From Brevundimonas sp. (GTDB taxonomy: Bacteria > Actinomycetota > Actinomycetes > Actinomycetales > Cellulomonadaceae), in assembly GCA_039207135.1 (NCBI GenBank), contig JBCECL010000004.1, forward strand, positions 5,165-69,164: a stretch of DNA of 64,000 bases, written 5' to 3'. A program made the translations under genes and the position numbers. Shown here in pieces: positions 25,121 to 62,997 of this stretch (within the stretch, counting starts at the first letter, position 1; each line of letters begins with the position of its first letter). Below the pieces are notes generated by a model. It was not told where the DNA came from. It did no database searches and saw only the letters and a program-made list of their open reading frames with translations.

Positions 25121-25121
25121 C

Positions 25122-28985: not shown

Positions 28986-29036
28986 TCGTCGGACACGCTC
29001 CCGCACCGATCCCGTTCACACCAAGAAGGGCACCAC

Positions 29037-29279: not shown

Positions 29280-29281
29280 CC

Positions 29282-29707: not shown

Positions 29708-30126
29708 CGCGCCGCCCCAGCGGAGAGGCGGGCTCGATGGCGGTGGAGATCGTCATCCTCGTGCCTGTGCTCCTTCTCCTGCTCTCGCTCATCGTCGCGA
29801 TGGGACGCTTCGTCACGACCCAGGGCGACGTCCAGGCCGCCGCGCGCGAGTCGGTGCGCGCGGCCACCTTGGCCCGGGACGTGGCCTCGGCGAGGGTGGC
29901 CGCGCAGGAGGCGGCGACGGCGTCCCTTCCCGCCGACGCCGACTGCAGGAACGTCGAGCTCAGCGGCGACTTCACGGCCGGTTCGACGCTCACGGTCACG
30001 TTGCGGTGCGACGTCTCCTGGAAGAACCTCAGCGAGCTCGGTCTGGGCGCCTCGACGACGATCACCGAGAAGAGCTCGGCGCCGCTCGACCGGTTCCGCC
30101 GCACCAGCCCGGGAGGATCGCCGTGA
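29704..30126 (+). CDS. TadE/TadF-like pseudopilin
   Basis: Contains EAGSMAVEIVILVPVLLLLLSLIV. ATGA overlap. Confidence 0.78.
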   Translation: MTRRPSGEAGSMAVEIVILVPVLLLLLSLIVAMGRFVTTQGDVQAAARESVRAATLARDVASARVAAQEAATASLPADADCRNVELSGDFTAGSTLTVTLRCDVSWKNLSELGLGASTTITEKSSAPLDRFRRTSPGGSP

Positions 30127-30578
30127 TCCGGCGGATGCGCGCCGCGACCGCCCAGGAGGAGCGCGGCTCGGTCTCGGTGTTCGTCATCGGTCTGGCCGTC
30201 GCGCTGCTCGTCCTGGCGGGCCTCGTGGTGGACGGCGGACGTGCGGTCAACGCACGGGCGGCGGCGTACGACGACGCCGAGCAGGCCGCCCGGGCGGGGG
30301 CCAACGAGATCGACGTGCTCAGGCTCCGCAACACAGGTCAGGTGGTCATCGATGCGGACGCGGCGACACGCGCGGTCGACGCCTTCCTGGCGGCGCGTGA
30401 CTATCCCGCCGGCTCGGCGGTGACAGTGGTCGGGGCGCGCGAGGTCCGCGTGAAGCTGGACGGCGACGTCAACACGTCGCTCCTGACCCTGATCAACATC
30501 GACTCATTCCACGTGACCGCGACTGCGACCGCACGGGCCGCCATCGGGATCGACGCCGAGATCGGAGGTGCACCGTGA
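30123..30578 (+). CDS. TadG-related (Tad_N-like) pilus assembly protein
   Basis: Contains ERGSVSVFVIGLAVALLVLAGLVVDGGRAVNARAAAYDDAEQAARAGA. GTGA overlap. Confidence 0.72.
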   Translation: MIRRMRAATAQEERGSVSVFVIGLAVALLVLAGLVVDGGRAVNARAAAYDDAEQAARAGANEIDVLRLRNTGQVVIDADAATRAVDAFLAARDYPAGSAVTVVGAREVRVKLDGDVNTSLLTLINIDSFHVTATATARAAIGIDAEIGGAP

Positions 30579-33403
30579 GTGCACAGACGCGAGACACGCA
30601 CGCCGAGGGCGCCGAGCTGCCCGAGAGGGGGCCCGAGCGCTTCCAGCGCGCGAGCGCAGAGCAGGAGCCGCCGCACTCGCGATGGAGCAGCATCGGCGCG
30701 CTGCTGGTGCTCCTCGTGCTCGTCGTCGGCGTGCCCTTCGCGCTCGTGCGCCTCGGCGGCGGTCTGCACGTCCCGACCTCGCTGCCGAGCCGCGAGGACC
30801 TGACGGGAGCCGTCGGCATCGACCAGGTCGTCACGTTGCTGACCTGGATCGTCTGGCTCGCGTGGCTGCAGTTCACGATCTGCGTGGCCGTCGAGCTGCG
30901 CTCCGCGATCCGCGGCGTCGGCATGCCCGCACGCGTGCCGCTGGCCGGGCCGAGCCAGCGGGCCGCGCGCACGCTGGTCGCGGCCGTCCTGCTGCTCGTC
31001 ACGTTCGCCGGGCAGGCGAATGCGGTCACCACGACCGTCGAGCACGCCGGATCGGTCCCCGTGGCCGCGGTGGCGTCGTCCGTCCCGGGCGCCGCCGCGG
31101 TGTCCGCCGAGGCGCCCGCCCAGGAGCACACCGACGAGGGACGGAAGGTCTACCACCTCGGTGACATCGAGCTCGACGAGGACGAAGGGCGCGAGCTGGT
31201 CGGCAAGCTGGTCGCGGTCGTCACGCCGCCGGAGGGCCGGTACCACGACAACCTCTGGGACATCGCGGAACGGCACATGGGCGACGGGCGCCGCTACCAC
31301 GACATCTTCGAGCTCAACAAGGGGCGCGACCAGCCCGACGGGCAGGAGCTCACGCTCGCCCGGCTCATCCAGCCGGGCTGGCTGCTCGTCATGCCCGAGG
31401 ACGCGGCGGGGGTCGAACGGGTGACCGTGACCGTCGTGGCGCCGGTCGCGGAGGAAGCGCCGGTGCTGCCCGTCGACCCGCCGGCCGCCTTGTCCAAGGC
31501 GCCGTCGCAGGCCTCCGAGCCGGCCGTCGCCGCGCCAGCCACGAAGGCGGTCGACGACGCGCAGAGCCTCGTCGGCTCGGGTCTCCTGGCCGCGGGGCTG
31601 CTGGCGGCAGTCGTCGCGCTGCGGAGGCGGCGTCGCACGCCGGCGCCCGGCGACGACGCGGTCGAGATGGAGGTCGCGCTGCGGGTCGGTGCCGACCCAG
31701 AGCGCGCCCGCCGGCTCGACGCAGGACTGCGCGAGCTGTCCGCGCTGCGCTCAGCCGCGGGGCTCGAGCTCCCCGCGGTCTACGCGGCGAGCATCGACGA
31801 CTCACGGCTCACGGTGCACCTCGCGCCCGCCGACCCGAACGCGCCTGCGCCCTGGCGCGCGAGCGATGACGGTCGGCAGTGGCACCGCACCGCGGAGCTC
31901 GACCGGCGCGCGCCCTCGGACGTGCCCGCTCCCTACCCGGGCCTGGTCTCGCTGGGTCGCGGCTCCGACGAGGCCGACGTGCTCATCGACCTCGAGGCGG
32001 CGCAGGGCACGATCTGCATCGCGGGCGACGAAGCCGTCGCGCGCGAGGTGGCCGCGGCGATCGCCGCCGAGCTCGTCACCAACACGTGGTCCGACGCGCT
32101 GCGCGTCACCGGCGTCGACCTCCCCGACGCGTTGTCGGAGATCGGCGGCGAGCGTTACCGCCGCGTCGCGGCCATCGAGGACGGACTTCCGGAGGTGACG
32201 GCCCGGCAGGCCGACGTGCTCGGCACGAACGTCCTCGCGGGCAGGTCGCGCGGCTTGCGCTCGACTCCCGAGTACATCGTCGCCGGCACCGCGCCCTCCG
32301 AAGACTCCGCACGGCGGCTCGCCGAGCTCGCGGCCGACGGGGGTCGCGCGCCGTGGGGCGCCGTCGTCGTCGGCGACGTCCCGGGGGCGCGCTGGCGGAT
32401 CGAGGTGGACTCCGACGGTGCGCTCAGCATCGGCCTGCTCGGCCTGCGCGTCACCGCCAACCGGTTGTCGGCACGTCGCGTCGCCGCGCTCGGCGAGCTC
32501 CTTGCGCCGCCGGAGCCGGACGCGCTGCTCGACCGCGCCGGGAGCGTGGACCTCGAGGGGCACCTGGAACGGCCCGAGCTGCCCGAGCCGCCGCCGACGT
32601 CACGCGCGCTGGGCGTCGCGGACCTCTGGGCCGCACCCGTGCGGGTGCTCGTGCTCGGCAGCCCGCGGGTCGAGGCCGAGGGTCCGATCGACGACGACCG
32701 CCGCGCGCTGTGCACCGAGCTCGTCGTCCACCTCGCGCTGCACCCGGAGGGCGTCCACCCGACCGTGCTCGGTGCGGCGGTATGGCCCCGCGGGGTGACG
32801 ACGGCGGTGCTGAACGCGACTGTGGCTCGGGCTCGCGAGTGGCTCGGCAAGGACGCGCACGGTGCGCCCCACCTGCGGCACACGATGGACGGGAACCTCG
32901 TCCTGGGTGCGCGCGTGGTGCTCGACTGGGACGTCGTGCGGGCGCTCCTGGTGGCGTCGCGGAGCGGTGCGACGCCGGCCGAGGAGCGCGAGCTCTTGCG
33001 CGAGGCGCTCGCGATCGTGCGCGGTGCGACGCTCGAGGACGCTCCGTCCGGGCGCTACTCCTGGCTCGCTCGCGCGCGCCTGGAGCGCGACGCGAGGGCC
33101 CTGCTCGTGGACGCCGCACACCGCCTCGCGGTGCTGTGCCTCGACGACGACCCGGCGGGGGCCAGGGCGGCCGTCACCGCAGGTCTGCGCGTCGCCCCGG
33201 TCGACGAGCTGCTCTGGCGCGACCTGCTGCGGACGGTGTCGCTCGAGTCGGGGCCGGAGGGCGTGCGAGCTGCGGCCGACGAGCTGCAGCGCGAGCTGCG
33301 CGAGGCGGGCATCACCGAGGTCCCCGCCCAGACGGCGGCGCTCCTCGAAGAGCTCGCGCCGTCGGCCGACCCCGGCCGCGCTGGCCGCGGGAGGGGCGCG
33401 TGA
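30575..33403 (+). CDS. Polytopic membrane protein with a LysM domain and a C-terminal SARP-type wHTH + BTAD module
   Basis: 942 aa. Three N-terminal TM helices are followed by a LysM-like segment (YHDNLWDIAERHMGDGRRYHDIFELNKGRDQPDG..LIQPGWLLVMP). A fourth TM helix plus RRRRR follows, then a roughly 300-aa cytoplasmic domain. The C-terminus holds a SARP wHTH (VRVLVLGSPRVEAEG..VHLALHPEGVH..AVWPRG..ARAREWLG) and BTAD (LDWDVVRALL..LREALAIVRGATLED..ELLWRDLLRT). A GTGA overlap joins it to the last tad gene. Confidence 0.75.
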   Translation: MSAQTRDTHAEGAELPERGPERFQRASAEQEPPHSRWSSIGALLVLLVLVVGVPFALVRLGGGLHVPTSLPSREDLTGAVGIDQVVTLLTWIVWLAWLQFTICVAVELRSAIRGVGMPARVPLAGPSQRAARTLVAAVLLLVTFAGQANAVTTTVEHAGSVPVAAVASSVPGAAAVSAEAPAQEHTDEGRKVYHLGDIELDEDEGRELVGKLVAVVTPPEGRYHDNLWDIAERHMGDGRRYHDIFELNKGRDQPDGQELTLARLIQPGWLLVMPEDAAGVERVTVTVVAPVAEEAPVLPVDPPAALSKAPSQASEPAVAAPATKAVDDAQSLVGSGLLAAGLLAAVVALRRRRRTPAPGDDAVEMEVALRVGADPERARRLDAGLRELSALRSAAGLELPAVYAASIDDSRLTVHLAPADPNAPAPWRASDDGRQWHRTAELDRRAPSDVPAPYPGLVSLGRGSDEADVLIDLEAAQGTICIAGDEAVAREVAAAIAAELVTNTWSDALRVTGVDLPDALSEIGGERYRRVAAIEDGLPEVTARQADVLGTNVLAGRSRGLRSTPEYIVAGTAPSEDSARRLAELAADGGRAPWGAVVVGDVPGARWRIEVDSDGALSIGLLGLRVTANRLSARRVAALGELLAPPEPDALLDRAGSVDLEGHLERPELPEPPPTSRALGVADLWAAPVRVLVLGSPRVEAEGPIDDDRRALCTELVVHLALHPEGVHPTVLGAAVWPRGVTTAVLNATVARAREWLGKDAHGAPHLRHTMDGNLVLGARVVLDWDVVRALLVASRSGATPAEERELLREALAIVRGATLEDAPSGRYSWLARARLERDARALLVDAAHRLAVLCLDDDPAGARAAVTAGLRVAPVDELLWRDLLRTVSLESGPEGVRAAADELQRELREAGITEVPAQTAALLEELAPSADPGRAGRGRGA

Positions 33404-33415
33404 GGCGTCCATACG

Positions 33416-33462
33416 ACGGGCAAACGGCCGCAAGGCTGTCCGAAACCCGATAGTTTGCCCGT
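33416..33462 (+). promoter_or_regulatory. 10-bp perfect inverted repeat overlapping a -10-like element upstream of the WXG100 gene
   Basis: ACGGGCAAAC (33416-33425) pairs with GTTTGCCCGT (33453-33462). TAGTTT at 33451-33456 fits the TANNNT pattern. Hexamers GCAAAC, GCAAGG and CGAAAC sit at 33420, 33430 and 33441, spaced 10-11 nt apart. Confidence 0.35.
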
Positions 33463-33508
33463 GTGTGGCGGCGTCATGGGGGCGCCGCACGATCAGAAGG
33501 AGAAGTCC

Positions 33509-33781
33509 GTGGCCGTCGGTGCAGAGCTCAGTACCCTCCAGTCCCTTCACAAGACGTTCGAGGCCAAGGCCGACGAGGCGCAGGAGATCAAGGCGAAGGT
33601 CGACTCCGCTCTTCAGAGCGCCGTCTGGACGGGCAAGTACTCGGAAGACTTCAGGTCTGCCTGGAACGAGTACCGCGCGAACCTCGACAAGCTGCGCGAG
33701 GCGCTCGACGGTGCCGCGAGCGACGTCAAGACGAACCACAACAACATCGCCGCCGCGACGGGCGAGAGCGACCGCATCTGA
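33509..33781 (+). CDS. WXG100-family (ESAT-6-like) protein
   Basis: 90 aa from GTG 33509, preceded by an AAGGAG RBS. It is predicted to be helical, with a central W-T-G motif (SAVWTGKYSEDFRSAW). Confidence 0.8.
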   Translation: MAVGAELSTLQSLHKTFEAKADEAQEIKAKVDSALQSAVWTGKYSEDFRSAWNEYRANLDKLREALDGAASDVKTNHNNIAAATGESDRI

Positions 33782-33789
33782 TCAACGTG

Positions 33790-33823
33790 CAGGCGGCCCG
33801 CCCCGGGTGGGGCGGGCCGCCTG
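33790..33823 (+). terminator. Perfect 15-bp GC hairpin between the WXG100 gene and the FtsK-like ATPase gene
   Basis: CAGGCGGCCCGCCCC gggt GGGGCGGGCCGCCTG, beginning 9 nt after the WXG100 stop. There is no clear U-tract. Confidence 0.6.
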
Positions 33824-33884
33824 TCGCCATGAGCGCATGGCACGACCCGTGCGCGCCGACCCGACCCGTCGACAGGAGGACCAC

Positions 33885-36800
33885 GTGCGTCTGATCCTCA
33901 GCGTCGCCGTACCGGGCGAAGCGGCGCCCGTCGACGTCGTCGCGGAGTGTGCACCCGGTGCGCGTGTCGCGGACCTCGGCGTGGCGCTCGGCGCGGCGCT
34001 GCGGTTCGAGCAGCACAGCGTGGTGCCACGAGGCTCGGGACATCTCGGCGTCGTCGAGGTGACACGCGCCGAGCACGGCGCCACGCTGCCGCTGTGGTGG
34101 CGGGGCACGGAGCTGGAGCCCGAGCAGCCCTTGGAGGCCAGCCCCCTGCGGCAGGGGCACCTGGTCGGCTTGGGGCAGCCGGCCGCTGACCTGTGGGACG
34201 AGCCGTTCGGTGCATGCGAGGTGCGCGTCGTCTCCGGCCGGGGTGCCGGGCGTGTGCACCGGCTCAGCCCGGGCCGGCACGAGGTCGGACGCTCGCGGGC
34301 CGCGTCGGTCCGGCTCGAGGACGGACCCGAGCGCGCGCTGGTCCTGGACGTGGGCGTCGACGGCTCGGTGACCGTGACCGTCGAGCCCGAGGTCGCGGCG
34401 CTGACCGTCCCCGCTCCGCGGCGACTGCGGCCGCTCGACGGCCCGATCGTCGTGCCCGGGGAGCCAGCGCGGGCGGACCGGGCCGGGGGGCGGCGGTACT
34501 CGACGCGCCTGGCCCGCGCGCGCAGCGCGAGCGCCGGCATGCAGGAGATCGATCCCGAGGACGACCGCCCGCTCGTGCACCTCGACCGTGCAGCGGTCCT
34601 GGCCCCCCGTCGGTGGGTGGCGGGGGAGTCGCTCGTCGTCGGCGACACGGTGCTCGAGCTCGCCGAGCTCACCGCACCCGACGCCTCGCTCTCGCCGAGC
34701 GCCGAAGGCGCCACGCTCGACTTCAACCGCCCACCTCGACTGCTCCCGCCGGTGCGGACGAGCGAGTACCGGCTGCCCGCCGAGCCGAGGACGCCCGACC
34801 GGCAGTCCTTCCCGCTCGCGATGGTGCTCCTGCCCGTCATCATGGGCGGCGCGATGTACTGGTTCACGCGGTCGCCGTACTCGCTCATCATCATGGCCCT
34901 GTCGCCGGCGATGGGGATCTCGAACTGGGTCTCGTCGCGCAAGTCGCGTCGGGGGCAGCACGTCGAGGCGGTGCGGACGTTCGCCGAGCGGACAGCGCGC
35001 GTCGAGGCCGACGCGTACGCGGCGCTCACCAGCGAGAGCGCAGCGCGGCGGCGCGAGCTGCCCGACCCCGCGAGCGTCCTGCTGTTCGCGACCGGCCCCC
35101 GGGCGCGGCTGTGGGAGCGGCGACGCACCGACCCGGACTGGCTGCTGGCTCGCGTCGGCACGGCCGACGTCGCGAGCGAGGTCTCCTTGCGCGACCCGTC
35201 GCGCGAGGACCACGAGCGCGTCCAGCACTGGACGGCGGCGGACGTCCCCGTCGCGGTGCCGTTGGCCCAGGTCGGTGTCACGGGGGTCGCGGGGAGCGAC
35301 GACGAGCGTCGACGACTGGCGGGGTGGATGGTCGCGCAGGTGGCCGCGTCGCACTCTCCGGCGGACGTCTCGGTGGTGCTCCTCGCCGAGCCCGGGGGCG
35401 CCGCGGACTGGCGCTGGGTGCGCTGGCTGCCTCATCTGCGACGCGATGCCGGGCCGCTCGTCTCGGTCGGCAACGACGACGAGACCACCGCTCGCCGCGT
35501 CGCCGAGCTGCTCGACCTGGTCGAGCGCCGCCGAGCCGCGTCGCGGTCCGACCAGGGCTTCTCGAGCGCGTCGCTCGTCCTCCCGCCTCCGGTCCTCGTC
35601 GTCCTCGACGGTGCGCGTCGCATCCGCATGCTTCCCGGGCTCGTGACGCTCCTGCGCGAGGGTCCGGCCGTCGGCGTCCTGTTCCTGTGCCTCGACGAGC
35701 AGGAGCGTCAGCTGCCCGAGGAGTGCCGTGCCGTCGTCCGGCTCGACGCGGGCGGCGCGGTGGTCACGGTCGCGGGTCGCGACGCGGTCGAGGGCGTGCG
35801 CGCCGACCTGGTCGACCCGGGCTGGCTCGAGCGGATGGCCAGGGCGGTGGCCCCGATCCGCGACATCAGCAGCGAGGACCTGACGTCGACGGTCCCGACG
35901 ACGTCGCGGCTGCTCGACGTGCTGCAGCTGGACCCGCCGCGCGCCGACGCGGTCGCGCAGGTCTGGGCTCGGGGCGGCCGCACGACGAAGGCGGTCATCG
36001 GCGAGACCGGCGACGGGTTGTTCACGGTCGACGTCAGCGCGGACGGCCCCCACGGGCTCGTCGCGGGGACCACCGGCTCCGGCAAGTCGGAGCTCCTGCA
36101 GACGTTGATCGCGTCGCTCGCGGTCGGCAACCGGCCGGACGAGATGACCTTCGTGCTGGTCGACTACAAGGGCGGCGCGGCGTTCAAGGACTGCAACAAC
36201 CTGCCGCACACGGTCGGCATGGTCACCGACCTGGACACGCACCTGACGACTCGCGCGCTCGAGAGCCTCGCGGCCGAGCTCCGCCGCCGCGAGCACCAGC
36301 TCGCGGCCGCGGGCGCGAAGGACATCGGCGACTACCTCGCGGCGCGTGGACCCGGCGACGAGCCGATGCCCCGCCTGCTGATCGTCATCGACGAGTTCGC
36401 CGCGCTGGTCGCCGAGCTGCCCGACTTCGTCACGGGCCTGGTCGACATCGCCCGCCGAGGTCGGTCGCTCGGCGTGCACCTGCTGCTGGCGACGCAGCGG
36501 CCGGCAGGTGTGGTCAGCGCCGAGATCAAGTCGAACACGAACCTGCGCATCGCCCTGCGGGTCACCGACCGCAACGACAGCCAGGACGTCATCGAGGGGC
36601 CCGAGGCCGCCGAGATCGCGCAGAGCCTGCCGGGTCGCGCGTACGCCCGGCTCGGCCACTCGAGCCTCGTCGCCTTCCAGGCGTCTCGGGTCGGAGGCCG
36701 TCCGCCGGCGGCCACGCGCGGCGGGCAGGTGTCGGTCGCACCCCTCGGCTGGGACGTGCTCGGGCGGCCGCTGCCCGGCCGGCGCGCCGCGGGAGAGGAC

Positions 36801-38492
36801 GACATCGACACCCCCACGGATCTGGCCTCGCTGGTCGCCGCGGTGCGAGACGCCGCGTCCCTCGCGAGCGTCGCGGCGCCGCCGCCGCCGTGGCTGCCCG
36901 CGCTGCCGCCGGTGGTCACGCTCGCGGGTCTCGCGGAGGCCGCTCGGCGCGAGCTGCCGGCCTCGCCCTTCGCGCTCCCGTACGGGCTGCTCGACCTGCC
37001 CTCGCAGCAGCGCCGTGACATCGCGGTGCACGACATCGAGCGTGCCGGCCACCTCGCGGTGCTCGGAGCGGCGCGCTCCGGTCGCTCGACGGTGCTGAGA
37101 ACCCTCGCGGCCGCAGTGGGCGAGCGGCTCTCGCCGCGCGACGTCCACCTGTACGGGGTGGACTGCGGGAACAACGCACTCCTCCCGCTCGTCGGCCTGC
37201 CGCACACCGGCGCCGTCGTGACGCGCGACCAGCCCGAGCGGCTCGCGCGCCTGACGCGCCGCCTGCGCGCCGAGATCTCGCGTCGCCAGCGCCTGCTCGC
37301 CGAGCAGTCGTACGCGGACGTGACCGAGCAGCGGGCGAGCGTCGCTCGCGACGACCGGCTGCCCTACATCGTCGTGCTCCTCGACCGCTGGGAGGGCTTC
37401 GTCCAGGCGTTCGAGGACTACGACCAGGGCGTGCTGCTCGACCTGTGGACGCAGATCCTGCAGGAGGGACCGGGCGCCGGCGTGAAGGTCGTGCTGAGCG
37501 GCGACCGCAGCCTGACCGTCGGACGGATCTCGACGCTGACGGAGAACCGGCTCATGCTGCGCATGTCCGACCCAGGTGACTACTCGGCCGTGGGCATGAC
37601 ACCGCGCCAGGTGCCCGGCGTGATCGGCGACGGGCGCGGGTTCCGTTCGCAGTCGTCGCAGGAGGTCCAGGTCTGCCTCCTGGACGAGGCGCCGGGCGGC
37701 GCGGAGCAGGTCGCGGCGCTCCAGCGCATCGCGCGCGACGCGACCGACCGCGCCGAGCGTGACGGTGACGCTCCTGAGCAGCAGGTGCCGTTCCGGGTCG
37801 ACGACCTGCCGGCCCAGATCACGCTGGCGCGAGCCCTGGCCCTCGGGCCTCGCGCGCTCGCGCGCTCCGCCGTGCCCGCGGGGGTGGGCGGCGACAGCCT
37901 GACCCTGTTCGGCTTCGAGGCCGAGGAGCACGGACCCGGCGTCCTCGTGGTCGGTCCTCGTCGCTCGGGACGCAGCACGGCTCTGATGACGATGGCGACG
38001 TCGGCGCTCGAGCGCGGCTGGGCGGTCGGCACCGTGACGCCTCGGCGAAGCCCGCTGCGCGACCTCGCGGGCTCCGCCGGGCTCGTCGGGGACCTCACGC
38101 TCGAGTCGTCTCGCGACGAGATCCGCGCTCTGCTCGCGGAGCTCGAACCCACCGCGAGCCGCCCGACGCTCCTCGTCGTGGACGACCTCGAGCTGCTGGG
38201 CACGGACAGCAACGCCGCGGAGGCGATCGTGGAGCACCTCGCGACCCTGAGGGACCGTCCGGGCCTCGTCGTGGCCGGCGGGACCACGGACGAGCTGTCG
38301 GGCTCGTACCGCGGCCCGGCTCCCGCGCTGAAGAAGTCCCGCAGCGGGCTCTTGCTGTGCCCAGCCTCGCCGAACGACGGCGACGTGTTCGGCTTGCGGC
38401 TGCCGCGATCGGTCATCGGGGGATCGATGCCGGGTCGCGGGATCGTGTCGCTGGGCGGGCAGTGGCAGAGCGTGCAGGTGCCCGTGCCATGA
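33885..38492 (+). CDS. Type VII secretion FtsK/SpoIIIE-family ATPase (EssC/EccC-like) with an N-terminal FHA-like region
   Basis: 1535 aa from GTG 33885 with an AGGAGGA RBS. The N-terminal soluble region includes EVRVVSGRGAGRVHRLSPGRHEVGRSRAASVRLED. Two TM helices follow (FPLAMVLLPVIMGGAMYWF, YSLIIMALSPAMGISNWV), then three P-loop domains with Walker A GTTGSGKSE, GAARSGRST and GPRRSGRST. Confidence 0.88.
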   Translation: MRLILSVAVPGEAAPVDVVAECAPGARVADLGVALGAALRFEQHSVVPRGSGHLGVVEVTRAEHGATLPLWWRGTELEPEQPLEASPLRQGHLVGLGQPAADLWDEPFGACEVRVVSGRGAGRVHRLSPGRHEVGRSRAASVRLEDGPERALVLDVGVDGSVTVTVEPEVAALTVPAPRRLRPLDGPIVVPGEPARADRAGGRRYSTRLARARSASAGMQEIDPEDDRPLVHLDRAAVLAPRRWVAGESLVVGDTVLELAELTAPDASLSPSAEGATLDFNRPPRLLPPVRTSEYRLPAEPRTPDRQSFPLAMVLLPVIMGGAMYWFTRSPYSLIIMALSPAMGISNWVSSRKSRRGQHVEAVRTFAERTARVEADAYAALTSESAARRRELPDPASVLLFATGPRARLWERRRTDPDWLLARVGTADVASEVSLRDPSREDHERVQHWTAADVPVAVPLAQVGVTGVAGSDDERRRLAGWMVAQVAASHSPADVSVVLLAEPGGAADWRWVRWLPHLRRDAGPLVSVGNDDETTARRVAELLDLVERRRAASRSDQGFSSASLVLPPPVLVVLDGARRIRMLPGLVTLLREGPAVGVLFLCLDEQERQLPEECRAVVRLDAGGAVVTVAGRDAVEGVRADLVDPGWLERMARAVAPIRDISSEDLTSTVPTTSRLLDVLQLDPPRADAVAQVWARGGRTTKAVIGETGDGLFTVDVSADGPHGLVAGTTGSGKSELLQTLIASLAVGNRPDEMTFVLVDYKGGAAFKDCNNLPHTVGMVTDLDTHLTTRALESLAAELRRREHQLAAAGAKDIGDYLAARGPGDEPMPRLLIVIDEFAALVAELPDFVTGLVDIARRGRSLGVHLLLATQRPAGVVSAEIKSNTNLRIALRVTDRNDSQDVIEGPEAAEIAQSLPGRAYARLGHSSLVAFQASRVGGRPPAATRGGQVSVAPLGWDVLGRPLPGRRAAGEDDIDTPTDLASLVAAVRDAASLASVAAPPPPWLPALPPVVTLAGLAEAARRELPASPFALPYGLLDLPSQQRRDIAVHDIERAGHLAVLGAARSGRSTVLRTLAAAVGERLSPRDVHLYGVDCGNNALLPLVGLPHTGAVVTRDQPERLARLTRRLRAEISRRQRLLAEQSYADVTEQRASVARDDRLPYIVVLLDRWEGFVQAFEDYDQGVLLDLWTQILQEGPGAGVKVVLSGDRSLTVGRISTLTENRLMLRMSDPGDYSAVGMTPRQVPGVIGDGRGFRSQSSQEVQVCLLDEAPGGAEQVAALQRIARDATDRAERDGDAPEQQVPFRVDDLPAQITLARALALGPRALARSAVPAGVGGDSLTLFGFEAEEHGPGVLVVGPRRSGRSTALMTMATSALERGWAVGTVTPRRSPLRDLAGSAGLVGDLTLESSRDEIRALLAELEPTASRPTLLVVDDLELLGTDSNAAEAIVEHLATLRDRPGLVVAGGTTDELSGSYRGPAPALKKSRSGLLLCPASPNDGDVFGLRLPRSVIGGSMPGRGIVSLGGQWQSVQVPVP

Positions 38493-38565
38493 CGAGCATG
38501 ACCGGTGAGCGACGACCCTGTCCCGTGCCGGACGGGGACAGGACGCAGGAAGAGGAGAAGACGAC

Positions 38566-38856
38566 GTGACGGACGACGACAAGGTCGAGAACCGGTACCG
38601 CATCGCGCTCGCAGACGCCACGCCCGGCGCCCGGTGGTCCGCGACCGCCGCGGGCACGGCCTTCGCCGCGGTCGAGAGCGCGCTGAAGAACGACGCGTGG
38701 GTCAGCACCACGGCCGACGCCTTCTCGAGCACGTGCGCAGCCAACGAGAAGTCCGCCGGCGCAGCTGCCGGCGACTGCGTCGACGAGATGACCGCGCGGC
38801 ACGGGCGAGAGCCGCTCAAGGTCTCCAAGACCGACTACCGCGCGACCTGGCACTAG
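38566..38856 (+). CDS. Small helical hypothetical protein (possible WXG100-like partner or targeting factor)
   Basis: 96 aa from GTG with a GGAAGAGGAGAAG RBS. It is Ala-rich with no TM helix or signal peptide. DAWVSTTADAF sits where a WXG-like turn would be. Confidence 0.55.
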   Translation: MTDDDKVENRYRIALADATPGARWSATAAGTAFAAVESALKNDAWVSTTADAFSSTCAANEKSAGAAAGDCVDEMTARHGREPLKVSKTDYRATWH

Positions 38857-38865
38857 GGGGACACA

Positions 38866-40968
38866 GTGGCGATGGCCAAGATCGACGTCGTCGGCATGGG
38901 ACGGCTGGTGAGCGGGCTCGAGGACGGCATCGAGACGCTCGACACCGCGCGCGCCGACCTGCGCGGCACGCTCGCGCACTTCTACCTCGACACGGGTCGC
39001 AGCGCCGCGCTGCGGGGACCCGCCGACTGGGCGCGCGACGAGCTCCCGGCTGCCCGTCGTCGCCTCGCGCTCGCGCAGGCGCTCGAGGGCTCGGACCCGT
39101 CGTGGGAGAAGGGCAAGGTCGCGCTCGACGACGTCACGGACATCACGTCGATGGACCCGGACAAGGCGCAGCAGGCCGGGCAGGAGGCCGCGCAGGCGCT
39201 GCGCGACGGCGGGAAGCCCGACGCCGACCTCATCGACCAGATCGTCGAGATGCAGAACGACCCGTACTTCGCCGCGGGTTTCGCGAGTGCGCTCGGCGCG
39301 GACGAGCTCGCCGACGTGGTCGTCAAGCTCTCCTACAACCGGACCTTCCAGGACGGCTCGCACACGCAGGCGCAGCTCGACGCCGCCAACGCCTGGTACG
39401 GCAAGCTCCTGGTCGGCATGTCGACGACGGTGGCCACCGCCACGCGGTCGACGGGTGACCTTGCACTCCCGCCGGGCTACGCCCAGGGCTGGATCGACCA
39501 GATCACCGCCGAGGTGCCGACCTCGCCCTACTACGACGGCGGGGACGGCCGACCGGACCGTGCCAACGCGCTGACGGTGCTGCTGAACTCCGGCCGCTAC
39601 GGCGATGCGTTCCTCGGCCAGATCTCGACCCAGGTCTACGACTACGAGCGCAAGGTCGGTGACGAGCGCGGCAAGGTGTGGGAGCCCCGCGGCAGCGACC
39701 TGACGAGCCCGTTCGGCGTGTACGACGCCCAGGGCCTGCGGTTCCGTGACCCGATGACCGGCGTCATGAACGCCCTCGGCCACAACCCGCAGGCGGCGCA
39801 GTCGTTCCTCGACGGTGGACCTACCCGCACCGTCAAGATCGACGGGCACGACGTCCGGGTCTCCGACCGCCTGGCCTACCTCGTGATCGACCGTCGGTGG
39901 GACATCGACAACACCAACGGCGGCGCGCTCGGGTCGGCCCTCGAGGCGGCCACCACGAAGCTGCGCGACAGCGGACCGGCGGGCCAGGTCTCGGCGGATC
40001 TCGCGTCGCAGACCTTCGCGCTGATCGGGAACAAGACCGGCGAGGGCAAGTCCGGCGGCTTCCTCGGCATCGGTGCTGACGACGGCTGGAAGATGTGGGA
40101 CGGCCTGCGCCCTCACGTCTCGCAGATGCTGGCGTCCTACGGCGCCGACGCCTACCGCGTGATCGCCACCGACGACGACGACCTGACCCAGGGCTGGTCC
40201 GCGCCGGGCAGCGGCCAGCTCTTCGGCGACGACATGCCGTACGGCGCCGTGCTGGACAAGGCACTCCTGGCCAAGATCGTGGGGACGCTCGGCGAGAACC
40301 AGGACGACCTCACGCCGTTCCTGACCGGGCTGTTCCAGGCGCAGAACCTGGCGGTCGGCAAGGGGCTGACCGACGCGCTGAGCGACCAGCCGAACGCCGC
40401 GGCGAACTTCATCACGGGCGGCACGAGCGACGACTCGAACTCCTCGATCACCAACTCCTCCGAGGTCATCGGGTGGGCGCTGGACACGGCGTACTCCGGC
40501 GACAAGGCAGACGAGGAGATGCAGAAGAAGCGGGCCGAGGCGATCGCCGACGCCCTGAGCCTCGCGTCGAGCCTTCCCTTCGTGCCCGAGATCAAGCCGC
40601 AGTGGCTCGCGTGGGGCGCGGACCAGCTCAAGGACAAGACCCTCGACGAGATCCGCAACAGCGCCTCGTCCGACTCGGGCAAGACGTACACGGAGCTCAA
40701 CGCGGACGTCCAGGAGCGGCTCGAGGACGCCACGATGAACCAGCTCCTGCGCAGCGGCTACTTCAGCGACGACGCGGTCCGCCGCGCGGCCGACAAGGGC
40801 TTCACGTTCCGCCCGCCGCCGGCGGACGCGATCGACCCCGGGCCGCCGCCGCAGTTCCGCACGGACTCGTCGGCGTACGTCGACTGGTACAGCACGTCGG
40901 CGCTCAAGTCGATCGTCGCGGAGAAGGTGGTCGGGACGTATCGCGACCAGTGGGGTCTGCCGCTGTGA
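38866..40968 (+). CDS. Large soluble hypothetical protein, candidate T7SS substrate with an LXG-like N-terminus
   Basis: 700 aa with no signal peptide or TM helix. The N-terminus is MAKIDVVGMGRLVSGLEDGIETLDTARADLRGTLAHFY. I recognised no catalytic motif in the rest of the protein. Confidence 0.6.
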   Translation: MAMAKIDVVGMGRLVSGLEDGIETLDTARADLRGTLAHFYLDTGRSAALRGPADWARDELPAARRRLALAQALEGSDPSWEKGKVALDDVTDITSMDPDKAQQAGQEAAQALRDGGKPDADLIDQIVEMQNDPYFAAGFASALGADELADVVVKLSYNRTFQDGSHTQAQLDAANAWYGKLLVGMSTTVATATRSTGDLALPPGYAQGWIDQITAEVPTSPYYDGGDGRPDRANALTVLLNSGRYGDAFLGQISTQVYDYERKVGDERGKVWEPRGSDLTSPFGVYDAQGLRFRDPMTGVMNALGHNPQAAQSFLDGGPTRTVKIDGHDVRVSDRLAYLVIDRRWDIDNTNGGALGSALEAATTKLRDSGPAGQVSADLASQTFALIGNKTGEGKSGGFLGIGADDGWKMWDGLRPHVSQMLASYGADAYRVIATDDDDLTQGWSAPGSGQLFGDDMPYGAVLDKALLAKIVGTLGENQDDLTPFLTGLFQAQNLAVGKGLTDALSDQPNAAANFITGGTSDDSNSSITNSSEVIGWALDTAYSGDKADEEMQKKRAEAIADALSLASSLPFVPEIKPQWLAWGADQLKDKTLDEIRNSASSDSGKTYTELNADVQERLEDATMNQLLRSGYFSDDAVRRAADKGFTFRPPPADAIDPGPPPQFRTDSSAYVDWYSTSALKSIVAEKVVGTYRDQWGLPL

Positions 40969-41549
40969 CGCGGCGAGCGGGTCGCTGGGTCGCAGCGACG
41001 TCGACCCTCGCGGTCGTGCTCGTCGCGCTGGCTGCGTGCACCTCGGACCCCGAGGCGTCGCCGACCGAGATCCCGACGCGCCCTGCCTCGAGCGGCGACC
41101 TCCTGTGCGGCATGAGCCGCACCGACGTCGCGACGGCCACGGGCGTCGACGTCGGCAGCGCAGACGGCGACCTGGCCACGCCCGCTGCCGACGGGGAGCG
41201 GACGTGCGAGGTGCGGCCGACCGACGGCAGCGACGCGGTCGTCTTCGTCTGGGTGGATCCGGCGTCGTCGGCGAGGGGCAAGGACCTGCGAGCGCAGCTG
41301 GACGGCGACGCGGTCGGAGTGGCGAAGCCGGACGTGCGGTTCGACTCGGTCGACGCCGCCGGCTGGCGCGGGGGACCGCAGGGTGCGACACCCGCGATCC
41401 TCGGTGGAACCGTGGTCCTGGCCGACGGCGACCAGGTGGTCAAGGTGACGACCACCCGCAACGGCTCCGGCCGCGACCCGCTCGAGGACGCCCTCGCGCT
41501 CGCGCAGCAGGTCGGGGCGTCGCAGGACGCGTCGGCGCAGGGGCAGTAG
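40965..41549 (+). CDS. Lipoprotein (DUF3558-like cysteine pattern, weak)
   Basis: Signal peptide with lipobox LVALAAC. A GTGA overlap joins it to the 700-aa gene. The mature part has two further Cys residues (LLCGMS, ERTCEV). Confidence 0.7.
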   Translation: MTRRAGRWVAATSTLAVVLVALAACTSDPEASPTEIPTRPASSGDLLCGMSRTDVATATGVDVGSADGDLATPAADGERTCEVRPTDGSDAVVFVWVDPASSARGKDLRAQLDGDAVGVAKPDVRFDSVDAAGWRGGPQGATPAILGGTVVLADGDQVVKVTTTRNGSGRDPLEDALALAQQVGASQDASAQGQ

Positions 41550-41718
41550 TGCAGGGGAATGTTCTCGATCGCTCGCGCGCCGAGCGACGCGTCGGGCGCG
41601 GCCCGTGGCGCGGCTCGGGCGACGTGACCGTTATGGTGGTTTCGCGAACCGACCACGGTTCGGGTCCCTCGCCACGAGGGCCGCGCGCTGCGACGCACGA
41701 CCACGAACGGGAGTACCG

Positions 41719-42360
41719 ATGGCGAGGCTGACGGGGGCGATCGTCGGTGCCCTGCTGGTGTCCCTGGCGGTCGCCGGATGCTCGTCCTCGTCGGGCGACG
41801 AGCCGGACGTCGTCGCCGCGGGCACGACGCCCGCCGTCACGCGAAGCGCGCCGGCGCCCACCGCGAGCCCGAGCGCCGCGCCGACGGCGACGGCGACCCC
41901 GACCAGCGCCGTCACGGACCGGTCCGACCTCGCGCTGGGCATCGCGTTCAAGGACATCCCGCAGGTCCAGGGCGAGCAGGCCGAGGCGGTCGACGCGCTC
42001 ATGAGGTTCCAGGTCGAGTTCTGGCGTTCCCGCGTCGAGGGCAAGGTCTCGCCCGCGGTCAACGACCTCGCGACGGGTGAGGCGCTCGCACAGGTCAAGG
42101 ACGTCGTGGCGACGAACGCGACGGACGGGTGGACTACAGGGGGCGCCATGAGCAACACGTTCGCGGATCTCGCCAGCAGCAAGCACGTCGTCCTCGTCGA
42201 CGTGTGCGTCGACGAGCGCGGCGCCACGTACACCAAGGCCGGCAAGGTGACCTCGGGCGCCGACCTCGACCTCGCGCGGCAGACGTACCGCGCCGAGGTC
42301 GCGCGCCAGCCCGGGGGCGGATGGGCCGTCCAGATGTACGCCCCGGGGAAGTCGTGCTGA
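41719..42360 (+). CDS. Lipoprotein, unknown function
   Basis: Starts MARLTGAIVGALLVSLAVAGCSSS (lipobox), followed by a Pro/Ala/Thr linker and then a globular domain. Confidence 0.7.
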   Translation: MARLTGAIVGALLVSLAVAGCSSSSGDEPDVVAAGTTPAVTRSAPAPTASPSAAPTATATPTSAVTDRSDLALGIAFKDIPQVQGEQAEAVDALMRFQVEFWRSRVEGKVSPAVNDLATGEALAQVKDVVATNATDGWTTGGAMSNTFADLASSKHVVLVDVCVDERGATYTKAGKVTSGADLDLARQTYRAEVARQPGGGWAVQMYAPGKSC

Positions 42361-43367
42361 GGGCCGGGCGGCTCGCGGCCGTGGTGCTCGGCGCGCTCGC
42401 CCTGGTGGCGGCGGCGCCCGGCGCGGTCGCCGCCGACGGCCCCTGCCGTGGATCGTGCGACGGCGGATCGGCCAGCGGGGGCACCAGTGCCGACTCGATA
42501 ACGGTCACGGTGAGCGGGTCGGGCGTGATCCCGGGCCACGGTTCGGTGCCGATCGACACCTCGAAGATCGCGGTGCACCCCCTGTGCTGGTACTCGGCCT
42601 TCGCCACCGGCAAGGAGTACGCGGAGTTCGTCGAGAGCGGCCGGGCGGCCGAGCTCGCGCACCACCACGACGACTACGAGACGGTCGAAGGCTGGGAAGA
42701 GCACCGCGACGACGACAAGGGCCACTGGTACGGGGGCACGTGCTCCAGCGCGTACTGGAAGGGCGAGACCATCGACGGCTTCTTCGAGGCCTCGGAGGCA
42801 TGGTTCGCCGACCACCACGTGGTCTGGGTCGACGGCGGAGACGCCCCGCCCGACCCCTTGGTGACACCCGAGATGCTCGCCGAGGTCGCCCGGAGCGAGA
42901 TGCGCATCCCGAAGGGCGAGCTCCACTGGAACCCGACCAGGGAGGGCGACGCCGCGACGTTCGTCGGCCTCGACACCTGGGTGTGGCTCGACGGTGCGCC
43001 GACGTCGGTCGAGGTCACGGCCTCCGTCTACGGCGGAGCGGTGTGGGCACGCGTCGACGCCACGCTCGACCACATCGATGTGTCGGCCGATGGGGCGCCG
43101 AACCGCCGCTGCGACGACACCGGTACGCCGTGGTCGCCCGGCGCGACGACGACGACGTGCTCGATCGCGTTCGTGCGCTCGAGCGCGACGCAGCCCAGGG
43201 ACTCGGACGGTGTGCGGAGGTCGACCTTGCGAGCCGCCGGCAGCTGGACGGCGTCGTGGGTGTCGAGCCTCGGCGGCGGACGGATTGATCTGCCGGCGCC
43301 CGCACCCGTGGTCACGACGGCCAGGGTGCCGGTCGCAGAGATCGAGTCGGTCGCCACCCAGCCGTAG
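42354..43367 (+). CDS. Secreted hypothetical protein
   Basis: GTG 42354 overlaps the upstream stop. Signal peptide LAAVVLGALALVAAAPGAVAADG. The C-terminal region has the pattern GLDTWVWLD..VTASV..C..GTPW..C..W.ASW. Confidence 0.65.
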   Translation: MLRAGRLAAVVLGALALVAAAPGAVAADGPCRGSCDGGSASGGTSADSITVTVSGSGVIPGHGSVPIDTSKIAVHPLCWYSAFATGKEYAEFVESGRAAELAHHHDDYETVEGWEEHRDDDKGHWYGGTCSSAYWKGETIDGFFEASEAWFADHHVVWVDGGDAPPDPLVTPEMLAEVARSEMRIPKGELHWNPTREGDAATFVGLDTWVWLDGAPTSVEVTASVYGGAVWARVDATLDHIDVSADGAPNRRCDDTGTPWSPGATTTTCSIAFVRSSATQPRDSDGVRRSTLRAAGSWTASWVSSLGGGRIDLPAPAPVVTTARVPVAEIESVATQP

Positions 43368-43413: not shown

Positions 43414-44475
43414 GTGCGATGGGACGGTCAGCGGGACGACGAGGACACGGCACTGCCGGGTCTGGGACTGCGCGGCCTGGTTCGCAGCGTGCGGACACCC
43501 GAGTTCGCCGGGATCACGTTCCACGAGGTGCTCGCGCGCAGCGCGCTGAACAAGGTCCCGGACGCGTCGTCGATGCCGTTCCGCTGGACGGTCAACCCGT
43601 TCCGCGGCTGCACGCACGCCTGCGTCTACTGCTTCGCGCGGCCCACGCACGAGTACCTCGACCTCGACGCGGGCCGCGACTTCGAGACCCAGGTCGTCGT
43701 GAAGACGAACGTCGTCGAGGTGCTCCGGGCGGAGCTGCACCGGGCGTCGTGGAGCCGGGAGACCGTCGCGCTCGGCACCAACACCGACCCGTACCAGCGA
43801 GCCGAGGGCCGCTACGGGTTCATGCCCGGGATCGTCGAGGCCCTCGTCGAGACCCGCACGCCGCTGTCGATCCTCACGAAGGGCACGCTGCTCCGACGAG
43901 ACCTCGACCAGCTGGCGTCGGCCGCATCGCACGTCCCGGTCGGTATCGGCATCTCACTGGCGATCGGCGACGAGAGCCTCCAGCAGGCTCTCGAGCCCGG
44001 TACGCCGACGCCGCGCGCGCGGCTCGACCTCATCCGCGCGGTGCGCGACGCCGGGCTGCCGTGCGGTGTCATGGTCGCTCCCGTGATGCCGTGGCTCACG
44101 GACGGGCGCGACGAGCTCGACGCGCTGCTCGGGCAGCTCGCAGAGGCGGGCGCCACGGGGGTCACCGTGCTGCCGCTGCACCTGCGCGGCCCCGTGAAGC
44201 CCCTGTTCTACGCGTGGCTCGACGAGCACCGCCCCGAGCTCGTGGCGCGCTACCGCTCGCTGTACGGGTCGGGCGCGTACGTGCCGGCCGAGTACGCGCG
44301 CTGGCTCGGCGAGCGCGTGCGACCTCTCGTCGCGAGGCACGGGCTCGGGCCGCGCGGAGGCCACCGCCTCGCCACGGAGGGCACGTACCCCGAGGGCAGC
44401 ATGCAGCCGTCGGCCTCCACCCGGCCGGACGCTGCGCCAGCGGTGGCGACCGTGCTCCAGCCGGCGCTCTTCTAG
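43414..44475 (+). CDS. Rv2578c-family radical SAM protein
   Basis: CX3CX2C motif CTHACVYC. The context between hisS and aspS matches Rv2578c. Confidence 0.85.
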   Translation: MRWDGQRDDEDTALPGLGLRGLVRSVRTPEFAGITFHEVLARSALNKVPDASSMPFRWTVNPFRGCTHACVYCFARPTHEYLDLDAGRDFETQVVVKTNVVEVLRAELHRASWSRETVALGTNTDPYQRAEGRYGFMPGIVEALVETRTPLSILTKGTLLRRDLDQLASAASHVPVGIGISLAIGDESLQQALEPGTPTPRARLDLIRAVRDAGLPCGVMVAPVMPWLTDGRDELDALLGQLAEAGATGVTVLPLHLRGPVKPLFYAWLDEHRPELVARYRSLYGSGAYVPAEYARWLGERVRPLVARHGLGPRGGHRLATEGTYPEGSMQPSASTRPDAAPAVATVLQPALF

Positions 44476-62987: not shown

Positions 62988-62997
62988 GGCTGATCTA

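Follow-up and report, generated by a model that had tools for sequence, protein, structure and literature searches.

How might a type VII secretion ATPase operate in an actinobacterium when none of the membrane proteins that accompany such ATPases in known systems is encoded nearby? This question is raised by the stretch of 64,000 nucleotides from contig JBCECL010000004.1 (assembly GCA_039207135.1, deposited as Brevundimonas sp.) that was analysed here and is referred to as the window. On its forward strand, to which all features of the locus described below belong, it carries a WXG100 gene, the gene of a 1535-residue ATPase and a set of smaller genes, which an earlier note on this DNA had described as a module resembling a type VII secretion system (T7SS). 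This description was borne out, as an EccC/EssC-type triple-P-loop membrane ATPase and a WXG100 protein are encoded side by side; a T7SS in the broad sense is recognised by a membrane-bound FtsK/SpoIIIE ATPase with three P-loop domains and an adjacent WXG100 gene, and both were found. With moderate confidence, we propose that the locus represents a distinct subtype of T7SS (WXG100/Esx) that occurs throughout the Actinomycetota and is built into a Tad pilus locus. The subtype is apparently undescribed and widespread, and is characterised by a motor with fused ubiquitin-like and FHA domains, by partners of its own and by a robust link to Tad. What the module does is inferred here from sequence, predicted structure and gene neighbourhood.

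The ATPase gene (33885-38492) starts with GTG behind an AGGAGG motif, and its product matched Pfam FtsK_SpoIIIE with E = 5e-63. From the N-terminus onwards the protein consists of a ubiquitin-like domain, an FHA domain, two transmembrane helices, a DUF region and the P-loop domains D1, D2 and D3. The P-loops are located at residues 728 (GTTGSGKS, D1), 1061 (GAARSGRS, D2) and 1357 (GPRRSGRS, D3). Walker A is canonical in D1 only; the exchange of Lys for Arg in D2 and D3 (residues 1061-1068 and 1357-1364) was invariant in an alignment of 14 members from several orders, and the G-R-S form of Walker A in both domains is a signature of this ATPase family. Of the two transmembrane helices that had been claimed for the protein, the first was recovered as the one clear segment in a hydrophobicity scan (residues 309-327), while the second is deduced from a neighbouring run of hydrophobic residues, together with an EssC/YukB alignment that starts at residue 279. 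Searches of the PDB returned EccC of T. curvata (4nh0, 265 bits), YukB of Bacillus subtilis (225 bits), EccC5 (172 bits) and FtsK (68 bits). The YukB alignment extended from residue 279 through the transmembrane region, the EssC D2-D3 structure was aligned over residues 1028-1533 and the EssC model over residues 279-1374. With the NCBIfam models, the ATPase scored 570.9 bits for EssC (TIGR03928, cutoff 778.4), 409 bits for EccCa (TIGR03924, cutoff 509) and 303.5 bits for EccCb (TIGR03925, cutoff 346.6). Because all three scores are below the curated cutoffs, it is an equivalog of neither EccC nor EssC. The ATPase is clearly a motor of the EccC/EssC type rather than an FtsK-type DNA translocase.

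To characterize the N-terminal region, the first 305 residues of the ATPase were modelled (mean predicted local distance difference test score, pLDDT, of 77). The model contains an FHA sandwich with an inserted helix at residues ~110-260, which Foldseek matched to OdhI/GarA with a probability of 1.0 and a target-normalised TM-score of ~0.8. It also matched YscD/PscD, and Pfam Yop-YscD_cpl was detected in ten of 14 family members. Together with the Pfam and P-loop results, this confirms the ATPase as it had been drawn from the DNA, with 1535 residues, three P-loop domains and an FHA-like N-terminal region, as well as the claim that this region is of the EssC style. Neither the phosphothreonine-binding arginine nor the Ser-x-x-His motif is conserved in the consensus of the FHA family (VGSxPxAxVRLxDxxLP), and the domain is therefore assigned to the phospho-independent kind present in EssC and YscD. 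Residues 1-100 showed a beta-grasp topology in the model. A profile of this segment from 28 members hit designed ubiquitins (E = 1e-3), the N-terminus of Snm4/EccD (E = 9e-3) and EccD5 (E = 0.08), and Pfam YukD matched nine of the 28 segments, the best with E = 2.7e-4. The ubiquitin-like component of a T7SS is part of EccD in the subtype T7SSa and the free protein EsaB/YukD in T7SSb; the ubiquitin-like domain fused to the motor is the counterpart of EsaB/YukD. A profile spanning the ubiquitin-like and FHA domains recovered 434 clusters (50% identity, E <= 1e-10) among 1.84 billion representative proteins and is specific to this ATPase architecture.

Upstream of the ATPase, at 33509-33781, lies the single WXG100 gene, which has 90 codons, a GTG start and an AAGGAG ribosome-binding site before it. 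The earlier note had recognised the 90-residue product by its W-T-G motif, and rightly so, since it matched Pfam WXG100 (PF06013) with 31.5 bits at a cutoff of 27.3; in the PDB, weak matches to the ESAT-6-like protein MAB_3112 and to EsxA were obtained. Genes in the window were called from the GC content at third codon positions, and all 55 were scanned with Pfam. EccB, EccD, EccE, mycosin, EssA, EssB, EsaA and a free YukD were found neither among these 55 genes nor in four Pfam-annotated neighbourhoods of relatives. The claim that no known T7SS partner is encoded thus stands for the 64 kb of the window and holds likewise for these four neighbourhoods. Relatives of the locus were collected by a pattern scan of one genome per species, which detected more than 594 loci encoding a relative of the ATPase. 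For the best 80, the locus was retrieved together with 10 kb on either side, and genes were called, clustered and mapped; the WXG100 and Tad counts refer to the 81 loci in which the gene caller found the ATPase. This gene-neighbourhood census, which had been suggested earlier as a check, revealed a WXG100-like gene as the most constant neighbour of the ATPase (68 of 81 loci), at least two Tad genes in 37 loci and homologues of a 942-residue membrane protein, here named p942, in about 40 of 82.

Directly before the T7-like module of the window, a complete Tad/Flp pilus operon was found at 24404-30578. Its first gene (24404-25120) encodes a CpaB/RcpC-like Tad protein with a SAF domain (Pfam SAF, E = 2.4e-6), which is 75% identical to the product of the Cellulomonas edaphi gene in the same position and belongs to a gene cluster (cluster 8) present in 32 loci. 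The following gene (25107-25904) is a candidate for a TadZ/CpaE-like (ParA/MinD-like) protein, as judged by its position and by the N-terminal motif ASAKGSPGVTTT read by eye; the Pfam scan gave no family for it, and it is kept between CpaB and TadA in 32 loci. The secretion ATPase TadA/CpaF (25901-27214; Pfam T2SSE, E = 1.9e-30) shares 95% of its residues with the C. edaphi protein, and across orders identity amounts to 70-87%. It is followed by the platform proteins TadB (27211-28068; Pfam T2SSF) and TadC (28065-28985; Pfam T2SSF, E = 1.7e-8), by a Flp-type prepilin of 80 residues (29037-29279; cluster 6, 34 loci) with the processing motif G/ASAIEW read from the sequence, by a TadE-like (29282-29707; Pfam TadE, E = 1.4e-11) and a TadE/TadF-like minor pilin (29704-30126; Pfam TadE, E = 6e-9) and, as the last canonical Tad gene, by a TadG-like protein (30123-30578; Pfam Tad, PF13400, E = 1.3e-7). 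TadA, TadB, TadC, a Flp-type pilin and the TadE/F/G pseudopilins, by which a Tad/Flp system is defined, are all encoded. A gene for a prepilin peptidase was not found in the locus; in Luteipulveratus, a Peptidase_A24 prepilin peptidase gene is located 8 kb downstream of the ATPase (L083, 22874-23494). The gene order from CpaB through the first lipoprotein gene of the module is identical in C. edaphi and Jiangella. The architecture is hence not the reduced or minimal one that the earlier note had described: the module is the tail of a Tad/Flp operon that had gone unnoticed, and it has a conserved partner set of its own.

The gene of p942 (30575-33403) connects the two parts and is our candidate for a coupling or partner subunit. 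Its start overlaps the stop codon of TadG (GTGA), and in translation it therefore forms the end of the Tad operon. The AlphaFold2 model of p942 (mean pLDDT 75) comprises, in this order, three transmembrane helices, an outward LysM-like domain, a fourth transmembrane helix with an arginine run behind it, an alpha/beta region and a SARP module. The LysM domain gave weak sequence matches only, as did a PDB sequence search with the p942 profile, in which a weak LysM match was the sole result; relatives in the databases are named LysM or BTAD proteins. With Foldseek, the alpha/beta region matched the FtsK motor (E = 1e-4), the 'DUF' pseudo-ATPase domains of EccC3 and YukB, and D2 of EccCb1 (target TM-score 0.48). 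A Walker A motif is absent from p942, the sequence at that position being GDEAVARE. When profiles of the p942 and ATPase families were compared, no sequence similarity was detected, and the FtsK-like assignment is therefore one of fold; we consider the middle domain, with moderate confidence, a putative FtsK/EccC-like pseudo-ATPase. The C-terminal SARP module, composed of a winged helix-turn-helix and a BTAD domain, was matched by Foldseek to AfsR (8hvr_I, E = 2e-7, target TM-score 0.61-0.64) and to EmbR (E = 4.5e-6), and some relatives have Pfam BTAD matches; as modelled, p942 thus possesses the two parts that define a SARP, an OmpR-type winged helix and, behind it, a BTAD helical domain. The 40 loci with p942 homologues were identified with a hidden Markov model of the core. 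A short form (cluster c45), which consists of LysM, a transmembrane helix and the core and is devoid of the SARP module, matched residues 215-638 of p942 (hhalign, E = 4e-61). Short forms adjoin the ATPase in loci of Kineosporia, Actinocrinis, Actinoplanes and Promicromonospora where Tad genes are missing from the vicinity, which indicates that the p942 core follows the ATPase and not only Tad.

The linkage to Tad extends well beyond Cellulomonas. Among the 34 non-Streptomyces loci with full flanks, 23 contain Tad genes. A neighbour-joining tree internal to the ATPase family, for which placement relative to EccC and EssC was by model scores, resolved three clades: clade A with Cellulomonas, Jiangella, Nocardioides, Actinomyces and Kribbella, clade B with Streptosporangiales and Micromonospora, and clade C with mainly Streptomyces. 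Tad linkage was observed in all three clades and in at least five arrangements, as the Tad genes are found upstream of the ATPase on the same strand, divergent from it, downstream on the same strand, convergent with it, or with two genes placed between tadG and p942. The chance that a 6-kb operon stands beside a given gene in a multi-megabase genome is estimated at less than 1%, and inherited gene order alone would not survive five or more rearrangements.

Downstream of the ATPase, a variable set of genes is followed by a conserved pair. The 96-residue helical protein that the earlier note had listed is indeed encoded at 38566-38856 (p96). It gave no match in the Pfam scan, and hhalign connected it to cluster c30 (90%) and c30 to WXG100 (92%); p96 may hence be a divergent WXG100-like partner of the protein encoded next to it. 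The latter (38866-40968, 700 residues) is a DUF6571 protein (Pfam, 64.5 bits) and a candidate secreted cargo. It has no transmembrane segment and, as had been noted before, no signal peptide, and a PDB sequence search with it returned nothing informative. The LXG-like N-terminus that had also been ascribed to this protein was not recovered: LXG (PF04740) did not match the full protein at E <= 0.1, and neither LXG nor PF21725 (T7SS_signal) matched the N-terminal 230 residues of nine DUF6571 members (that of the window and eight relatives) at E <= 1. Identity as an LXG protein was therefore rejected. The WXG100 model gave one weak match (E = 0.045) among the same nine N-termini. Kinship of DUF6571 with the Streptomyces T7-signal protein c16 was considered as well and was dropped, since hhalign showed no relation. 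The next gene (40965-41549), which overlaps that of the DUF6571 protein (GTGA), encodes a lipoprotein with the lipobox LAAC (lipoprotein 1); this variable accessory component may be an immunity or partner protein. p96 occurs in six loci, DUF6571 in 16 and lipoprotein 1 in five. p96 always stands immediately before a DUF6571 gene and lipoprotein 1 always after one, and in most cases the gene in front of DUF6571 is p96 or c30. Together, p96, DUF6571 and lipoprotein 1 form a variable cargo set, and by analogy the small helical gene before DUF6571 corresponds to the usual layout of a T7 cargo with its putative targeting partner.

The conserved pair consists of lipoprotein 2 (41719-42360, lipobox LAVAGC) and a secreted protein of ~348 residues with a signal peptide (42321-43367), which belongs to the family sec412/c32. 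Both lipoproteins and the secreted protein had been reported from the DNA, and the genes are present; the start of the secreted protein, which is uncertain, is to be placed at about 42321 and not at 42129. Lipoprotein 2 matched the lipoprotein cluster c18 of Streptomyces-type loci (hhalign 97%, E = 6e-11). The cluster of the secreted protein is present in 20 loci; sec412 matched c32 (hhalign 98.4%, E = 5e-15), which is encoded between tadG and p942 in loci of the Nocardioides, Serinicoccus, Brevibacterium and Jatrophihabitans type. Homologues of the pair thus recur in distant loci, and members of the p942 family stand beside the ATPase in about 40, which supports the earlier suggestion that the ATPase works with partners that had not been recognised. 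In C. edaphi, a radical-SAM gene is located between lipoprotein 1 and lipoprotein 2; the corresponding gene of the window (43414-44475), which by a weak match is spore-photoproduct-lyase-like, follows the secreted-protein gene. Because the position of this gene differs, the pair is separable from the core module by rearrangement.

How does this set of components relate to the systems known so far? The locus had been judged against T7SSa and T7SSb only, a frame that is too narrow, as Garrett, Higginson and Palmer (2024, PMC11217815) have added subtypes c-j to these two, so that ten are now published. None of the subtypes T7SSa-j accommodates the present system. It resembles T7SSb in the N-terminal FHA fold, the two transmembrane helices and the three P-loop domains of the ATPase, for which EssC is the best NCBIfam model, in having only one WXG100 gene, which recalls the EsxA homodimer, and a ubiquitin-like module, and in a large cargo whose gene is accompanied by those of small helical partners and by a small gene downstream. 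It differs from T7SSb in that the ATPase has one FHA domain instead of a tandem pair and fails the EssC cutoff, in that the ubiquitin-like module is fused to the ATPase and not a free EsaB/YukD, in that EsaA, EssA and EssB are missing and the cargo is DUF6571 and not LXG, and in that it is found in Actinomycetota and linked to Tad. With T7SSa it shares the phylum, the WXG100 substrate, the strongest structure match (EccC of T. curvata) and a ubiquitin fold like that of the EccD N-terminus. However, EccB, EccD, EccE and MycP are encoded neither in the window nor in related loci, the EccCa and EccCb cutoffs were missed, one WXG100 gene is present instead of an EsxA/EsxB pair, and Walker A of D2 and D3 has Arg in place of Lys. 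EccC, moreover, has no N-terminal FHA domains (PMC11217815).

Among the more recent subtypes, T7SSd is the only actinobacterial one (Olsenella, Bifidobacterium; PMC11217815). It resembles the present system in its phylum, in an ATPase with FHA domains and in the lack of a separate ubiquitin-like gene. However, T7SSd has the Ser/Thr kinase TsdD, TsdH, the 1654-residue Ig-like TsdI and FHA domains that retain the phosphothreonine-binding residues, none of which is present here; a kinase gene and a gene for a signal-peptide protein of ~1650 residues were looked for in the locus and were not found. T7SSg and T7SSh (Acetivibrio, Paenibacillus) always stand beside a full Tad set, and the authors left open whether this is a coincidence (PMC11217815). 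They are alike in this adjacency, whereas they belong to the Bacillota, their ATPases are devoid of FHA domains, their ubiquitin-like TsxB is free, and they have in addition TsgL or TshG/TshM. A protein like p942, with LysM, pseudo-ATPase and SARP parts, occurs in none of the ten subtypes. FtsK/SpoIIIE translocases, in turn, have a single motor with a C-terminal gamma domain and at least four transmembrane helices, whereas the ATPase of the window has three P-loops and two transmembrane helices and ends after D3. Searches of the literature for DUF6571 and for Tad together with EccC in Actinomycetota, which did not extend to subscription journals, yielded no description of this architecture. 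In the sections consulted of the work on the Esx/Esr system of Schaalia, EsxA/EsxB are described with signalling proteins, and no sign of the architecture was seen there (PMC13622651).

Taken together, these components suggest a mechanism in which the ATPase would oligomerise to a hexamer in the membrane, as EccC and EssC do, D1 would hydrolyse ATP, and D2 and D3 would have a regulatory or substrate-docking role. This motor would export WXG100 dimers and the DUF6571/p96 cargo pair across the membrane. p942 might be the functional counterpart of EssB, with its cytoplasmic pseudo-enzyme domain docking on the motor and its LysM domain anchoring the complex in the peptidoglycan. In B. subtilis, YukD binds YukB and promotes the association of YukB with the pseudokinase YukC (PMC12637312), and the FHA domains of EssC bind the pseudokinase EssB (PMC11217815); by analogy with YukD, YukB and YukC, the fused ubiquitin-like and FHA domains would be the likely docking site for p942. 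EmbR combines SARP and FHA in one chain, and its SARP part is matched by the p942 model and its FHA part by the N-terminal model of the ATPase; this domain fusion is a weak hint at docking between p942 and the ATPase. Lipoprotein 2 and the secreted protein may form the extracytoplasmic part. Owing to its translational coupling with the Tad operon, p942 may tie secretion to the assembly of the Tad (pseudo)pilus, either physically or via its SARP domain. The role of Tad could lie in shared regulation by SARP, in joint assembly with the T7 module or in a wall-spanning pseudopilus that aids export. A stronger version of this idea, which we regard as tentative and rather unlikely, is that the Tad apparatus and the T7-type ATPase constitute one composite envelope-spanning machine, in which the TadE/F/G pseudopilus, driven by TadA/B/C, would serve as conduit or piston and would be coupled to the ATPase by p942, the lipoprotein and the secreted protein. 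If this were true, T7-type export and Tad biogenesis would be interdependent in monoderm Actinomycetota, and the same would apply to DNA uptake of the Micrococcus luteus type.

Several points weigh against a distinct subtype built into the Tad locus. That any member of the family secretes proteins is inferred from sequence; the search for eccB, eccD and mycP reached across the 64-kb window, which is part of the genome; and the ATPase fails to reach the curated cutoffs of the EccC models and of the EssC model alike. The middle domain of p942 was recognised as FtsK-like by Foldseek alone, with target-normalised TM-scores of 0.3-0.5, and genes in the related loci were called with a home-made caller that uses GC content at third codon positions. 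Furthermore, in about half of the loci, mainly of Streptomyces, Tad genes and a p942-like gene are both missing from the surrounding 10 kb, and the coupling to Tad and p942 is therefore not obligatory. These Streptomyces-type loci, which keep the ATPase, WXG100 and T7-signal proteins without Tad genes in that range, would also be expected if the module were autonomous, Tad adjacency reflecting shared regulation or inherited order and p942 being mainly a membrane-bound regulator of the SARP type. The confident SARP fold at the end of p942 would agree with such an autonomous module, and Garrett et al. left room for coincidence in the Tad adjacency of T7SSg/T7SSh (PMC11217815). We nevertheless consider an autonomous module doubtful, because the linkage is kept through at least five rearrangements, several orders and three clades, because p942 is coupled to tadG, yet its core is found also beside ATPases without nearby Tad genes, and because in other orders the sec412/c32 and c38 genes lie inside the Tad operon, between tadG and p942.

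The absence of known partners could also mean that the locus belongs to an ordinary T7SSa, with the genes of EccB, EccD, EccE and mycosin at another place in the genome. Of that genome the window comprises no more than 64 kb, and an actinobacterial EccC (4nh0) is the strongest structure match. This is very unlikely, however, as the EccCa and EccCb scores are under the cutoffs, as the ATPase has an FHA domain, which EccC lacks, and as the ubiquitin-like domain of EccD is here fused to the ATPase; such partners were found in none of the 81 related loci or four annotated neighbourhoods, in which another partner set is conserved. Finally, the ATPase might translocate DNA and serve, together with the Tad pilus, in its uptake or transfer, and not be a motor of protein secretion. 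It belongs to the FtsK/SpoIIIE superfamily, and in M. luteus, where tad-1 is essential for transformation, the exchange G327E in the ATPase Mlut_07490 cuts transformation (PMC8467076, PMC4322843). Such a function is highly improbable, since the triple-P-loop architecture of EccC/EssC is typical of protein-secreting T7SS motors, similarity to FtsK is confined to residues 715-908 (68 bits), no room for a gamma domain is left past D3, and a WXG100 gene is the most constant neighbour (68/81). The phenotype of the M. luteus mutant is explained equally well by a defect in pilus biogenesis, and orthology of Mlut_07490 is unproven by sequence.

The subtype built into the Tad locus may nevertheless have a bearing on M. 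luteus. In this organism, both natural transformation and the surface display of a Flp pilin encoded elsewhere absolutely require the tad-1 cluster, which extends from tadA to tadG and lacks a major pilin gene (PMC4322843). Directly beside it, Mlut_07490 encodes an FtsK/SpoIIIE ATPase with two transmembrane helices and the P-loop GTTGSGKS (PMC8467076). When G327E was re-introduced into Mlut_07490, transformation decreased at least 1000-fold and the comEA/EC promoter was not repressed (PMC8467076). The two loci are alike in that a tadA, tadB, tadC, tadE/F and tadG cluster stands beside an FtsK/SpoIIIE ATPase with two transmembrane helices and GTTGSGKS, and the divergent arrangement of tad-1 and the ATPase resembles that of the Streptosporangiales loci. 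They differ in the major Flp pilin gene, which is present in the window and missing from tad-1; in M. luteus no WXG100 or p942-like gene is reported, and the known role is transformation and Flp display, not secretion. A search with the Brevibacterium orthologue returned no Micrococcus protein among the best 120 matches, and orthology of Mlut_07490 is thus unproven. The conserved motif MGGAM of the first transmembrane helix spans residues 320-324 of the ATPase, and speculatively, with the same reservation as to orthology, G327E could fall into this helix. The module may explain why M. luteus requires a pilin-less tad-1 and an FtsK-like neighbour for competence pili and transformation.

Beyond this, the system bears on the route of T7SS cargo through the envelope in monoderm Actinomycetota and on what replaces EccB/D/E/MycP in the many genomes with only an FtsK-like ATPase and a WXG100 protein. 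The idea of a WXG100 gene with an FtsK-like ATPase and no other ESX genes was reportedly put forward by Pallen in 2002. The locus supplies a parts list for testing, namely a motor with a fused ubiquitin-like domain, a LysM-anchored pseudo-ATPase/SARP partner, two extracytoplasmic proteins and a Tad operon. The link between Tad and T7SS published earlier concerned a few genera of Bacillota and was possibly coincidental; the one described here is independent, far more robust and located in another phylum. Because the link appears independently in a second phylum, the case for a functional connection between Tad and T7SS becomes stronger.

Cargo-related genes of other kinds were seen in related loci. 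The Streptomyces sister clade (16 loci numbered between L020 and L065) keeps a strong WXG100 gene (62 bits) and a second WXG100-like gene, together with PF21725 T7SS-signal proteins that have C-terminal transmembrane helices, several uncharacterised proteins of ~210 residues and the lipoprotein/secreted pair. In 13 loci of this clade, a Ser/Thr kinase gene is convergent with the ATPase. The clade presumably corresponds to the SCO4508/SCO4509 pair, as judged by neighbours that resemble MqnA, a Ser/Thr kinase and a cold-shock protein. In Kribbella (L084, 7632-9346), a gene for a calpain-like protein of 465 residues (Peptidase_C2) directly follows a WXG100 gene upstream of the ATPase, and its product is a candidate protease effector.

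Between the WXG100 and ATPase genes, a GC-rich hairpin is located at 33789-33824, directly 3' of the WXG100 stop codon. A hairpin with a stem of 15 bp had been noted at this place; the hairpin is present, and its perfect stem measures 16 bp. The fold of 33779-33850, which includes a small second stem, has an energy of -49.9 kcal/mol (z = -4.7), and none of 200 shuffled sequences was as stable. A U-tract was not found 3' of the hairpin. Hairpins occur in the same place in eight loci of Cellulomonas, Actinotalea and Jiangella (L001-L005, L007, L009, L016). As the position is kept while the stem sequence differs among genera, the hairpin is regarded as a conserved RNA element, and the divergence of the stem at a fixed position suggests selection on structure. 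Probably it acts as an attenuator or as a stabiliser of the transcript 3' end, letting the WXG100 transcript outnumber that of the ATPase. In the 5' leader of the WXG100 gene, the inverted repeat GGCGGCGTCATGGGGGCGCCGC (33470-33492) is common to the window and C. edaphi (L001, ~9625-9647), and a -10-like motif (GATAnnGT) about 50 nt before the WXG100 start is conserved in the Cellulomonas loci. Jiangella has a clear TTGCAA-N17-TAGAAT promoter.

The G+C content is 70-75% over most of the window, and no compositional island was seen. Upstream of the locus lie genes of the core chromosome (pdxS/T, ruvC/B, yajC-secDF, apt, relA, a cyclophilin gene, hisS), and downstream the radical-SAM gene, aspS, an MMPL gene, rpsD, alaS, mltG and aroE. 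An origin from a mobile or conjugative element was ruled out, because the G+C content is flat and the locus lies within the conserved core gene order from hisS to aspS. The closest relatives of the proteins of the window are from Cellulomonas, the ATPase being 81% identical to its C. edaphi counterpart. For the ATPase and for p942, the databases contain 100% identical entries under the label 'MAG: Brevundimonas sp.', which denotes an alphaproteobacterium; given the G+C content of ~73% and the fact that all close relatives are Cellulomonas, this label on the contig is probably the result of mis-binning. A further pilus cluster, of type IVa and distinct from the Tad operon, closes the window (57609-64000) and encodes PilB (T2SSE and MshEN), a PilT-like ATPase, PilC and two pilins with the N-methyl motif, one of which bears an Ig-like domain. 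Together with the Tad operon, this gives the organism two or more type IV filament systems that lie less than 35 kb apart.

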